Assembly (NCBI RefSeq): GCF_048403405.1
Contig: NZ_CP183129.1
Length of the DNA: 64,000 nt
Strand: one strand, 5' to 3'
Origin: Escherichia coli
Lineage (GTDB): Bacteria; Pseudomonadota; Gammaproteobacteria; Enterobacterales; Enterobacteriaceae
Shown here piece by piece: positions 7,962 to 55,988 of this stretch (positions are counted from its first letter, which is position 1; every line of letters begins with the position of its first letter). The notes under the pieces are model-generated. The model ran no database searches. It was not told the origin of the DNA and worked only from the letters and a program-made list of their open reading frames with translations. The position numbers and the translations under genes were made by a program.

Positions 7962-7988
7962 TTTTCGTTGTTGATGTGAGTATGGTTT

Positions 7989-8018
7989 GCCGGATGCGGC
8001 GTAAACGCCTTATCCGGC
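7989..8018. repeat. REP (repetitive extragenic palindromic) element
   Basis: gccggatgcggcgtaaacgccttatccggc between the convergent yjgA and mpl. Confidence 0.85.
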
Positions 8019-8043
8019 AATGCTATATCATGCTGAAGCCGAA

Positions 8044-23026: not shown

Positions 23027-23665
23027 ATGAGTTTATTTGATAAAAAGCATCTGGTTTCCCCCGCCGATGCCCTGCCTGGACGTAACACCCCGATGCCCGT
23101 AGCCACACTGCATGCGGTCAACGGTCACTCAATGACCAATGTACCTGACGGAATGGAGATTGCCATTTTTGCGATGGGTTGTTTCTGGGGTGTGGAGCGA
23201 CTGTTCTGGCAGTTACCCGGCGTTTACAGCACCGCCGCAGGCTATACCGGCGGCTATACGCCAAATCCGACTTATCGGGAAGTGTGTTCCGGTGATACTG
23301 GTCATGCCGAAGCGGTACGCATTGTTTACGATCCTTCCGTCATCAGCTATGAGCAGTTGCTACAGGTATTTTGGGAGAATCACGATCCCGCCCAGGGAAT
23401 GCGTCAGGGCAATGACCACGGCACGCAGTATCGTTCAGCGATTTATCCGCTGACCCCAGAACAGGATGCCGCAGCTCGCGCCAGTCTGGAACGTTTTCAG
23501 GCGGCGATGCTTGCCACCGATGACGATCGTCGCATCACCACGGAAATCGCGAACGCCACACCGTTTTATTATGCCGAAGATGACCACCAGCAATATCTGC
23601 ATAAAAACCCGTATGGTTACTGTGGAATTGGCGGAATTGGCGTCTGTCTGCCGCCGGAAGCATAG
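23027..23665 (+). CDS. msrA: peptide methionine sulfoxide reductase A
   Basis: 212 aa from MSLFDKK; GCFWG active-site motif; the ORF call from 22961 is an extension. Confidence 0.95.
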
Positions 23666-23712
23666 CGTTACGGGTACAAATGTAGATTGTTGATAAAGTG
23701 CTATTTGTCTAT

Positions 23713-23810
23713 GCCGGATGCGGCGTAAACGCCTTGCCAGGCCTACAAAATCGTCCAAAATCAATATATTGTGGGGACTGCGTAGGCCTGATCGGCATAG
23801 CGCATCAGCC
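23713..23810. repeat. pair of inverted REP elements (BIME-like)
   Basis: gccggatgcggcgtaaacgccttgccaggcctac (23713-23746) and gtaggcctgatcggcatagcgcatcagcc (23782-23810). Confidence 0.8.
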
Positions 23811-23987
23811 AGTTTTTCATTTATCAGCAGTCTGAATTTTAACCCTCTGGCGGCTTTACAGTACCTTACGCTATACTAGCCACTGAAAATGCCGGTTCAC
23901 TTTCTTCGAATCGGCTTTCAATGTGTATTTCACACAAATTAATCAACTTCCCCTTCCGAGGATCTGGCCTGAAAGGTCGGATAAGAT

Positions 23988-25331
23988 ATGTTAAACAGTA
24001 TTTTAGTCATACTCTGCTTGATCGCTGTAAGTGCGTTCTTCTCGATGTCTGAGATCTCACTTGCCGCCTCACGCAAAATCAAACTTAAACTGCTGGCTGA
24101 TGAAGGCAATATAAATGCCCAACGCGTTCTGAATATGCAGGAAAATCCCGGCATGTTCTTTACCGTGGTCCAAATCGGTCTGAACGCAGTGGCGATTCTC
24201 GGCGGTATCGTCGGTGATGCGGCATTTTCTCCAGCTTTTCACAGCCTGTTCTCCCGCTATATGTCGGCAGAACTCTCTGAGCAACTGAGCTTTATTCTCT
24301 CTTTCTCGTTAGTGACTGGCATGTTTATCCTGTTTGCGGATTTAACCCCGAAACGCATCGGTATGATTGCGCCAGAAGCAGTGGCTTTGCGTATCATCAA
24401 CCCGATGCGCTTCTGCCTGTACGTTTGCACCCCGCTGGTGTGGTTCTTCAACGGCCTGGCGAACATGATCTTCCGTATTTTCAAACTGCCAATGGTACGT
24501 AAAGATGACATCACTTCTGATGACATCTACGCGGTAGTGGAAGCCGGTGCGCTGGCGGGCGTGTTACGTAAACAGGAACACGAGCTGATTGAAAACGTCT
24601 TTGAGCTGGAATCCCGTACCGTTCCGTCGTCAATGACACCGCGTGAAAACGTGATTTGGTTTGATCTCCACGAAGATGAGCAAAGTCTGAAGAATAAGGT
24701 GGCGGAACATCCGCACTCTAAGTTCCTCGTCTGTAATGAAGATATTGACCACATCATCGGCTATGTCGATTCTAAAGACCTGCTGAACCGCGTGCTGGCT
24801 AACCAAAGCCTGGCACTGAACAGCGGCGTACAAATTCGCAACACGCTGATTGTGCCGGATACGTTAACCCTTTCAGAGGCGTTGGAAAGTTTTAAAACCG
24901 CAGGTGAAGACTTCGCGGTGATCATGAACGAGTACGCGCTGGTGGTGGGGATCATCACCCTCAACGACGTGATGACCACGCTGATGGGCGATCTGGTCGG
25001 TCAGGGGCTGGAAGAGCAGATTGTCGCCCGTGATGAGAACTCATGGCTGATTGACGGCGGCACTCCGATTGACGACGTCATGCGCGTGCTGGATATTGAC
25101 GAGTTCCCGCAGTCGGGCAACTACGAAACCATCGGCGGCTTTATGATGTTTATGCTGCGTAAGATCCCGAAACGCACCGATTCGGTGAAATTCGCCGGCT
25201 ACAAATTTGAAGTGGTGGATATCGATAACTACCGCATCGACCAGCTGCTGGTGACCCGGATCGACAGCAAGGCCACCGCCCTTTCGCCAAAACTGCCTGA
25301 CGCTAAAGATAAAGAAGAAAGCGTCGCGTAA
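23988..25331 (+). CDS. ytfL: inner membrane protein YtfL (CNNM/UPF0053 family, DUF21-CBS-CorC domains)
   Basis: 447 aa; N-terminal TM domain followed by CBS pair and CorC-like C-terminus. Confidence 0.92.
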   Translation: MLNSILVILCLIAVSAFFSMSEISLAASRKIKLKLLADEGNINAQRVLNMQENPGMFFTVVQIGLNAVAILGGIVGDAAFSPAFHSLFSRYMSAELSEQLSFILSFSLVTGMFILFADLTPKRIGMIAPEAVALRIINPMRFCLYVCTPLVWFFNGLANMIFRIFKLPMVRKDDITSDDIYAVVEAGALAGVLRKQEHELIENVFELESRTVPSSMTPRENVIWFDLHEDEQSLKNKVAEHPHSKFLVCNEDIDHIIGYVDSKDLLNRVLANQSLALNSGVQIRNTLIVPDTLTLSEALESFKTAGEDFAVIMNEYALVVGIITLNDVMTTLMGDLVGQGLEEQIVARDENSWLIDGGTPIDDVMRVLDIDEFPQSGNYETIGGFMMFMLRKIPKRTDSVKFAGYKFEVVDIDNYRIDQLLVTRIDSKATALSPKLPDAKDKEESVA

Positions 25332-28431: not shown

Positions 28432-28620
28432 TTCTCCACCTCGTCTCTGTGAGCGGTGTTAACTTATTGTTTTACTTATACCCTATCGTTAATGAATGCG
28501 CCAACTGTGATAGTGTCATCATTTTCAAAGCGTAAAATTGTGGCATTCTTCACTGTTCTATAAGTAAGACGTTTATTCTCCCTTTTCTTTCGTATTCCCG
28601 ATGATAAAAGGATGTCCCTG

Positions 28621-30564: not shown

Positions 30565-30578
30565 TACACTTCTTTTTC

Positions 30579-30677
30579 GGCCTACAAATCATCAACCGCA
30601 TCCGACACTTTTGTCGGATGCGATGCTGGCGCATCTTATCCGTCCTACAAGTCATACACCGTAGGCCGCGCATCCTG
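30579..30677. repeat. cluster of REP-type palindromic units
   Basis: cggcctac..., gcatccgacacttttgtcggatgc hairpin, ...gtaggccgcgcatcc; fills the whole cpdB-ytfH convergent spacer. Confidence 0.8.
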
Positions 30678-39660: not shown

Positions 39661-40074
<414 letters not shown>

Positions 40075-40382
40075 TTATTCAGCCTCCTGTCTGGGTCAGC
40101 CGAATCCCGGGGAGGCAAGGAACGTGTTAAAGGTCGGCTGAAAAATGACGCGTTATAGTACTGACATACCCCGCTAAACTCAAGGCCAGCCGACAAATAA
40201 ATCTCATCTTTCACCAAATCGTACTAACACGCTGATTTGAAGTTCATCACACTTCATCATGGTGTTTTTTTGAACAACTGCATCAGAAATGGTCACCATC
40301 AACTTCTTTATCATTGATTAAAATTAAATCAGAAGATCATCACAGAGGAGAGCACACAAAGTCAGCCGTTGAGGAGGTATCT

Positions 40383-49156: not shown

Positions 49157-49181
49157 GTATCATCTACAGCAAATGAACAAT

Positions 49182-49215
49182 GCCGGATGCGGCGCGAGCG
49201 CCTTGTCCGGCCTAT
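49182..49215. repeat. REP element
   Basis: gccggatgcggcgcgagcgccttgtccggcctat between the convergent yjfN and aidB. Confidence 0.85.
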
Positions 49216-55922: not shown

Positions 55923-55951
55923 GCCGGGAGCGCCACGCTTGCCCGGCCTAC
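55923..55951. repeat. REP-like palindromic element
   Basis: gccgggagcgccacgcttgcccggcctac between rlmB and rnr; followed by the ccctcttc-tgtt-gaagaggg hairpin at 55963-55982. Confidence 0.7.
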
Positions 55952-55988
55952 GGATAATTCACCCTCTTCTGTTTGAAGAGGGTTATGA

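Follow-up and report, generated by a model that had tools for sequence, protein, structure and literature searches.

A single-copy y–L–z2 BIME in the msrA–ytfL spacer of Escherichia coli, probably a decaying relic

What kind of element is the inverted REP pair that lies between msrA and ytfL in Escherichia coli, and does it serve either of the two genes? In the window, by which we mean the whole 64-kb stretch of E. coli chromosome analysed here, msrA occupies 23027-23665 on the plus strand, with its stop codon ending at 23665, and paeA (ytfL) occupies 23988-25331 on the same strand, with its ATG at 23988. The 322-bp spacer between them is identical to that of strain 2012C-4221 (100%) and 95.7% identical to that of K-12. 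The original prediction described two oppositely oriented REP units in this spacer, called the pair BIME-like and proposed that it may act as the msrA terminator and as an upstream structural element for ytfL. We confirmed the observation: the pair exists, its position was given correctly and BIME-like was the right description. The element is of a kind that is already known, and the cataloguing of REP/BIME elements in E. coli goes back to the 1980s and 1990s. The RefSeq K-12 record NC_000913.3 has no repeat features at the msrA-ytfL locus, and equally none at the yaaX-yaaA locus; GenBank U00096 presumably lists REP/RIP repeat_regions.

Two REP units joined by an L linker

The left unit, GCCGGATGCGGCGTAAACGCCTTGCCAGGCCTAC, lies at 23713-23746 and the right unit, GTAGGCCTGATCGGCATAGCGCATCAGCC, at 23782-23810, to the base where they had been predicted. 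The gap between them, given beforehand as about 35 bp, is exactly 35 nt (23747-23781), and AGTTTTTC follows the right unit at 23811-23818, again as described. A repeat search recovered the pair as perfect inverted 9-mers, CAGGCCTAC and GTAGGCCTG, arranged tail-to-tail and 35 nt apart, together with two additional inverted pairs between the two units. As REP queries, we used the three sequences given for BLAST in the Methods of PMC11208160. The left unit is y-type (23712-23746, plus strand), with its CTAC tail pointing inward; it differs from the published y sequence, TGCCGGATGCGGCGTAAACGCCTTATCCGGCCTAC, at 3 of 35 positions and resembles y more closely than anything else in the window. The right unit is a short, z2-type REP (23781-23810, minus strand), whose GTAG head points inward on the plus strand and which has 4 mismatches in 30 positions to the published short REP, GCCTGATGCGCTACGCTTATCAGGCCTACG; a search with the 37-nt z1 query that allowed up to 9 mismatches did not return it. 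The y unit ends in CCTAC and the z2 unit begins with GTAGG. A diverged lineage, L007, has kept the 322-bp spacer. Its left REP and linker have undergone heavy mutation, but its z2 unit retains the canonical sequence GCCTGATAAGCGTAGCGCATCAGGC, which confirms both that the unit is z2 and that the insertion is old.

Both units are worn. In the y unit, the 3' arm is degraded to GCCAGGC from the consensus ATCCGGC, the hairpin reaches -12.1 kcal/mol as against -21.3 kcal/mol for the y consensus, and the match to the REP-derived Rfam family naRNA4 is weak (25.8 bits, minus strand). The z2 hairpin reaches -13.6 kcal/mol in most alleles but, with GGC changed to GCC, only -9.9 kcal/mol in the window. 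Taken singly, the hairpins do not clearly stand out from shuffled sequence (z = -1.7 for the left and -0.5 for the right), as would be expected if the two units were a chance inverted repeat outside the REP family. We regard that reading as practically untenable: both units match published REPs, whereas 20 random first-order Markov windows yielded no matches at much looser thresholds, the linker matches a curated family and orthologs are found throughout E. coli. The matches to Rfam ES036 and to the published REPs rule it out.

The pair is extragenic, within the 322-bp spacer, and further REPs elsewhere in the window mark it as a member of a multi-copy family; across the whole window, REP core 13-mers occurred 8 times (1.37 expected) and 14-mers 7 times (0.48 expected). 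The other REPs are at 7988-8022, 30572-30650 (30613), 49181-49215 and 55923-55952, and a head-to-head pair of a z1-like and a y REP at 14173-14256 matches Rfam naRNA4 (REP325-type) with 68.6 bits, above the cut-off. Two other Rfam matches in the window, both above the gathering score, are the ES239 sRNA at 28498-28620 (minus strand, 157 bits) and an RpsF leader at 40054-40138 (minus strand, 110 bits).

The 35 nt between the units (23747-23781, plus strand; AAAATCGTCCAAAATCAATATATTGTGGGGACTGC) form an L linker of the BIME-1 / RIP / RIB type. Rfam family ES036 (CssrF), the consensus of which, AAAuUUGUGCAAAUUCAAUAAAUUGCAGGAaAUACGUAGGCCU, is in effect an L linker plus a REP head, matches 23747-23789 with 33.3 bits (E 8.4e-5). 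This is under the gathering cut-off of 37.6 bits, whereas the orthologous K-12 copy (39.3 bits) and the K-12 yaaX-yaaA element (38.7 bits) both pass; the latter consists of z1, a 35-nt linker with TGCAATATATTGAATCTGCA, and then y. Together with the alignment of both units to published REPs, this ES036-type linker bears out the description of the pair as inverted REPs in a BIME-like arrangement.

Inside the linker, at 23759-23771 on the plus strand, AATCAATATATTG perfectly matches the IHF core consensus pattern WATCAANNNNTTR. Such a core alone occurs about as often as chance predicts (3 matches in the window, 2.5 expected), and the predicted site owes its weight to its placement within the L motif. 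Both K-12 and the canonical L linker carry TTCAA, one mismatch from the core. The K-12 element occupies 4441393-4441491, with the motif at 4441432-4441444, and reads ATTCAA where the window allele reads AATCAA. The main texts of two genome-wide IHF studies (Prieto 2012 and Kasho 2021) do not mention the locus. By analogy, the L linker may offer a candidate IHF binding site on DNA.

In the published scheme, a BIME-1 consists of z1 and y in single copy around a long, well-conserved L linker, often with an IHF site; a BIME-2 consists of z2 and y in tandem copies, with a short S linker and s/l/r flanks; and atypical BIMEs are chimeras that mix y, z1, z2, L, S, s, l and r and are described as tandemly repeated (PMC3333891). 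The element shares with BIME-1 the L linker, the single unit and the IHF consensus, but not the y + z1 composition; with BIME-2, it shares the y + z2 composition, but not the S linker, the s/l/r flanks or the tandem copies. Because a y REP is followed by an L linker and then by a z2 REP, the architecture is that of BIME-1 (RIP/RIB) and not of BIME-2, which settles the comparison that the original prediction had proposed. From its sequence, then, the element is a y REP, an L linker with an IHF motif and a z2 REP, that is, a BIME-1 architecture in which z2 replaces z1. Formally it is 'atypical', as it carries z2 and not z1, though atypical BIMEs are tandem and this one is single: each of the 11 aligned alleles (11/11) has one unit, with no tandem amplification.

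Distribution, divergence and interruption

The full 322-bp spacer was present in 5287 of 5426 complete E. coli genomes (97%). For the comparison between species, we fetched PaeA-linked loci from other species and compared their spacers. In E. albertii and E. whittamii, the spacer is 187-188 bp long and has no REP, and an unrelated, A-rich stretch of 38 nt takes the place of the 172-bp BIME segment. Two complete genomes labelled 'E. coli', the only two such found, have an albertii-like spacer that also contains no REP. In Citrobacter, Enterobacter, Klebsiella and others, msrA or another gene runs almost directly into the conserved ytfL block. Because E. albertii, E. whittamii and the other genera do not have the element, we place its gain inside the E. 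coli lineage. A non-autonomous REP doublet would have entered the msrA-ytfL spacer once this lineage had separated from E. albertii and E. whittamii. Its retention in 97% of E. coli genomes could reflect some benefit instead of inertia.

The 11 alleles align without gaps, and nearly all of their variation falls within the first 172 columns of the alignment. Between the window and K-12, the 172-bp BIME segment has 14 differences (8.1%), as compared with 2.3% at the third codon positions of msrA and paeA (Fisher p = 7e-4) and 0 differences in 150 bp of the ytfL leader (p = 1e-4). Thus, the BIME segment diverges faster than synonymous sites. Among the 11 alleles, pair counts in the REP stems and outer arms (described below) were no higher than in shuffles, and compensatory changes were not found: there was one double change, and several changes break pairs. 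These data suggest that the element, which now belongs to the msrA 3' region and starts 47 nt past the stop codon, is decaying without detectable constraint.

Two kinds of interruption were found in sequenced strains. The 8-bp sequence GCATAGCG occurs as a direct repeat on the plus strand, with one copy at 23660-23667, overlapping the msrA stop codon, and the other at 23795-23802, inside the z2 unit. In Escherichia sp. MOD1-EC7003 (locus L005, 2300-2360), a deletion of exactly 135 bp runs from one copy to the other, the second marking its far endpoint; the y unit and the linker are gone along with half of z2, and the msrA stop codon is intact. In addition, the z2 unit contains on its minus strand (23782-23792) an exact natural target of IS621, ATCAGGCCTAC, with the CT core; the natural target is ATCAGGC-CT-AC (PMC11208160). 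In strain Ecol_224 (locus L093, 2224-3502), IS621 has inserted into the z2 unit at GTAG^GCCTGAT, which corresponds to 23785/23786 in the window. The 135-bp deletion and the IS621 insertion together indicate that the element is dispensable.

About 136 genomes appear to have the spacer split into two places, given 5561 places in 5425 genomes, and 8 further genomes match the right-hand IS621 junction of the msrA-ytfL locus perfectly. Junction queries reached at least 80% coverage in 1251 and 1083 genomes, but they are ambiguous, as L-linker/IS621 junctions elsewhere in the genome match them too. These matches at other loci, in more than 1000 genomes, suggest that IS621 often adjoins L-type linkers.

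We conclude that the element is very probably a single-copy y–L–z2 BIME with a predicted IHF site that was gained in the E. coli lineage and is now a decaying, weakly constrained relic. The locus offers a compact worked example of the life history of a BIME, comprising gain after the divergence of E. albertii, fast decay, deletion by microhomology and insertion of IS621.

The element in relation to ytfL and msrA

The suggestion that the pair is an upstream structural element for ytfL found no support. The ytfL promoter and leader block, at approximately 23838-23987, is near-invariant in E. coli and conserved across genera, including Enterobacteriaceae that have no such element, whereas the BIME segment is absent from sister species and hypervariable. 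Across genera, the conserved block reads CTCTGGCGnCTTTACAG..CTTACGCTATACTAGC and is also seen as CTCTGGCG...TATACT; in the window it begins at about 23838. With only 11 nt between the conserved hexamers TTTACA and TATACT, the ytfL promoter departs from the standard sigma-70 layout. The block also contains STnc450 (RF02051), which we located at 23869-23926 on the plus strand (77.2 bits) in the paeA/ytfL 5' UTR. The STnc450 hairpin, GCCGGTTC...GAATCGGC followed by TTTC, is conserved in Enterobacteriaceae, with one-sided changes in the stem in E. albertii.

Around this hairpin, within the ytfL leader or beside it, other genera carry sequence that Escherichia does not have. Two Citrobacter loci (L011 and L024) have G+C-rich inserts (~120-150 bp) downstream of the STnc450 hairpin and upstream of paeA, and in Intestinirhabdus (L016) a G+C-rich insert (~120-150 bp) lies upstream of the hairpin, again upstream of paeA.

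A more specific form of the same idea gives the element, through the IHF site in its linker, an architectural role at the ytfL/paeA promoter, with a bend in the DNA some 120 bp upstream of the start site. It would draw on the perfect IHF core at 23759-23771 and on the 5' end of the ytfL 5' UTR construct of Adams et al. (PMC7815308), which corresponds to position 23885 in the window. We consider this highly improbable. Species that lack the element still have the conserved promoter and leader block, the IHF core occurs at chance frequency on its own and is off by one mismatch (TTCAA) in both K-12 and the canonical L linker, and ytfL is known to be regulated by premature, Rho-dependent termination inside the leader or the ORF (Adams et al. 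2021). The same study reported a strong 3' end at K-12 position 4441214 (minus strand), which is window position 23989, 2 nt into the ORF. The features that control ytfL are independent of the BIME, which sister species lack, and the conserved control region, STnc450 included, starts only at about 23838.

The role of the element in the msrA transcript is harder to dismiss. As originally proposed, the z2 hairpin and the U-run could be a functional Rho-independent terminator of msrA that insulates ytfL from read-through. Positions 23785-23810 can form a bulged hairpin on the msrA sense strand (-9.9 kcal/mol, and -13.6 kcal/mol in most alleles), after which come AG and four to five U residues, encoded in the AGTTTTTC run at 23811-23818 (plus strand) just 3' of the z2 hairpin. 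The whole BIME can also adopt a single long, branched hairpin with its end at 23809 (-42.1 kcal/mol, z = -3.0), nothing else between the msrA stop codon and the ytfL leader resembles a terminator, and transcription attenuation by BIMEs has been reported in the literature. However, a simple terminator scan does not call the site: between 22700 and 24300 it returned no terminators in the spacer and one promoter-like site, inside the BIME, with 2.1 expected. The T-run is short and strain dependent (TTTTT, TTTTG or TATTG); the alleles of W619, 13P484A, ET210 and TB4019 have GTATTG, and in the window strain the closing G-C pair of the stem is lost.

Comparative and transcript-end data also bear on termination. 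Species without the element have no replacement terminator, the ytfL promoter block starting no more than about 10 nt past the msrA stop codon in C. braakii and C. portucalensis. The first hairpin and U-run past msrA in these BIME-less species is STnc450, a stem in the ytfL leader, so read-through from msrA looks ancestral and tolerated. An msrA 3' end is absent from the Term-seq, SMRT-Cappable-seq, TERMITe and TRS tables: the tables of Adams 2021 list only ytfL-region 3' ends and none for msrA, and the supplements of TERMITe, SMRT-Cappable-seq and TRS have no msrA entry. A role as msrA terminator is plausible, although on balance we think it doubtful that the site is a functional Rho-independent one.

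Alternatively, the stem-loops at the 3' end of msrA might act as an mRNA stabiliser of the REP type, blocking PNPase and RNase II and raising MsrA output. The position in the msrA 3' region, 47 nt past the stop codon, and the presence of two hairpins within a long composite fold are consistent with such a role, as 3' UTR REPs have been reported to lengthen mRNA half-life (reviewed in PMC12306157). Against it, the stems are eroding with no compensatory change, sister species have the same msrA and no element, and most of the element is deleted in one E. coli-like lineage. We rate stabilisation about as we rate termination, as possible but somewhat unlikely, and the two roles are not mutually exclusive. 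From what is known of REPs and BIMEs in general, hairpins in the msrA transcript would probably slow 3' exonucleases, and hairpins with a short U-run would probably stop or pause a fraction of polymerases.

REP-mediated stalling of ribosomes at the stop codon was set aside, as the REP is 46-47 nt from the msrA stop codon. For the stalling effect described by Liang et al. in 2015, the REP reportedly has to lie no more than about 15 nt from the stop codon.

An outer inverted repeat and comparison with known systems

The BIME is flanked by a second, outer inverted repeat, the left arm of which (23672-23697) pairs with the right arm (23820-23845) at 77% over 26 nt. The complementarity score of the arms was 14, compared with 6.1 +/- 1.1 in shuffles, and was reached by 0 of 2000 shuffles. 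The right arm overlaps ancestral sequence beside the ytfL promoter block and is homologous to Citrobacter ...CTGCTGAAAATTAA(C/G)CC. The left arm is present only together with the BIME, and pairing between the arms was found only in E. coli and in L007, where the arms pair better. We rejected the possibility that the arms are a dispersed repeat, as they are specific to this locus and occur as a single copy in E. coli genomes.

This outer 26-nt inverted repeat is not accounted for if a REP doublet simply inserted. The left outer arm resembles the right flank in inverted orientation. One conceivable explanation, to which we give only a slim chance, is that the BIME is the centre of an imperfect palindrome of about 174 bp (23672-23845) in which the left arm, an inverted copy of the right flank, is a footprint of the insertion. 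If this were true, insertion of an L-type BIME would have been coupled to an inverted duplication of flanking DNA and would not have been a clean cut-and-paste event; strand switching at a REP hairpin is an example of a route by which the flank might be duplicated. The outer inverted repeat is the only feature of the locus that could teach something new. For the rest, the element should be labelled a y–L–z2 BIME of the IHF type that belongs to the msrA 3' region, and not a regulatory element of ytfL; this matters little beyond annotation, as the linker of the K-12 ortholog already passes a curated Rfam model.

Of the known systems, the closest is the BIME-1 between yaaX and yaaA (NC_000913.3, 5565-5669). 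Like the msrA-ytfL element, it has tail-to-tail REPs around a 35-nt L linker with the core ...AAAT(T/A)CAATATATTG..., matches ES036 and is a single unit placed just 3' of a gene. Unlike it, the msrA-ytfL copy has a short z2 and not a z1 on the GTAG side, has two degraded stems, falls under the ES036 cut-off and is bracketed by the locus-specific 26-nt outer inverted repeat. BIME-2 and atypical BIMEs, the y + z2 arrays that bind gyrase, have the same pair of REP types, but the msrA-ytfL element is an L-linked unit without the S linker, the s/l/r motifs or tandem amplification. REP sites are also known as targets of IS621, a member of the IS110 family guided by a bridge RNA; here too the z2 unit holds the target and is occupied in one strain, although this is use by another mobile element and not a function of the BIME itself. 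Finally, the element resembles REPINs, which are mobilised by RAYT / TnpA-REP, in being an inverted REP doublet that can form one long hairpin (-42 kcal/mol, z = -3) and in being lineage-specific, present or absent between sister species; it differs from them in that its doublet is made of two REP types and is an old, decayed copy.
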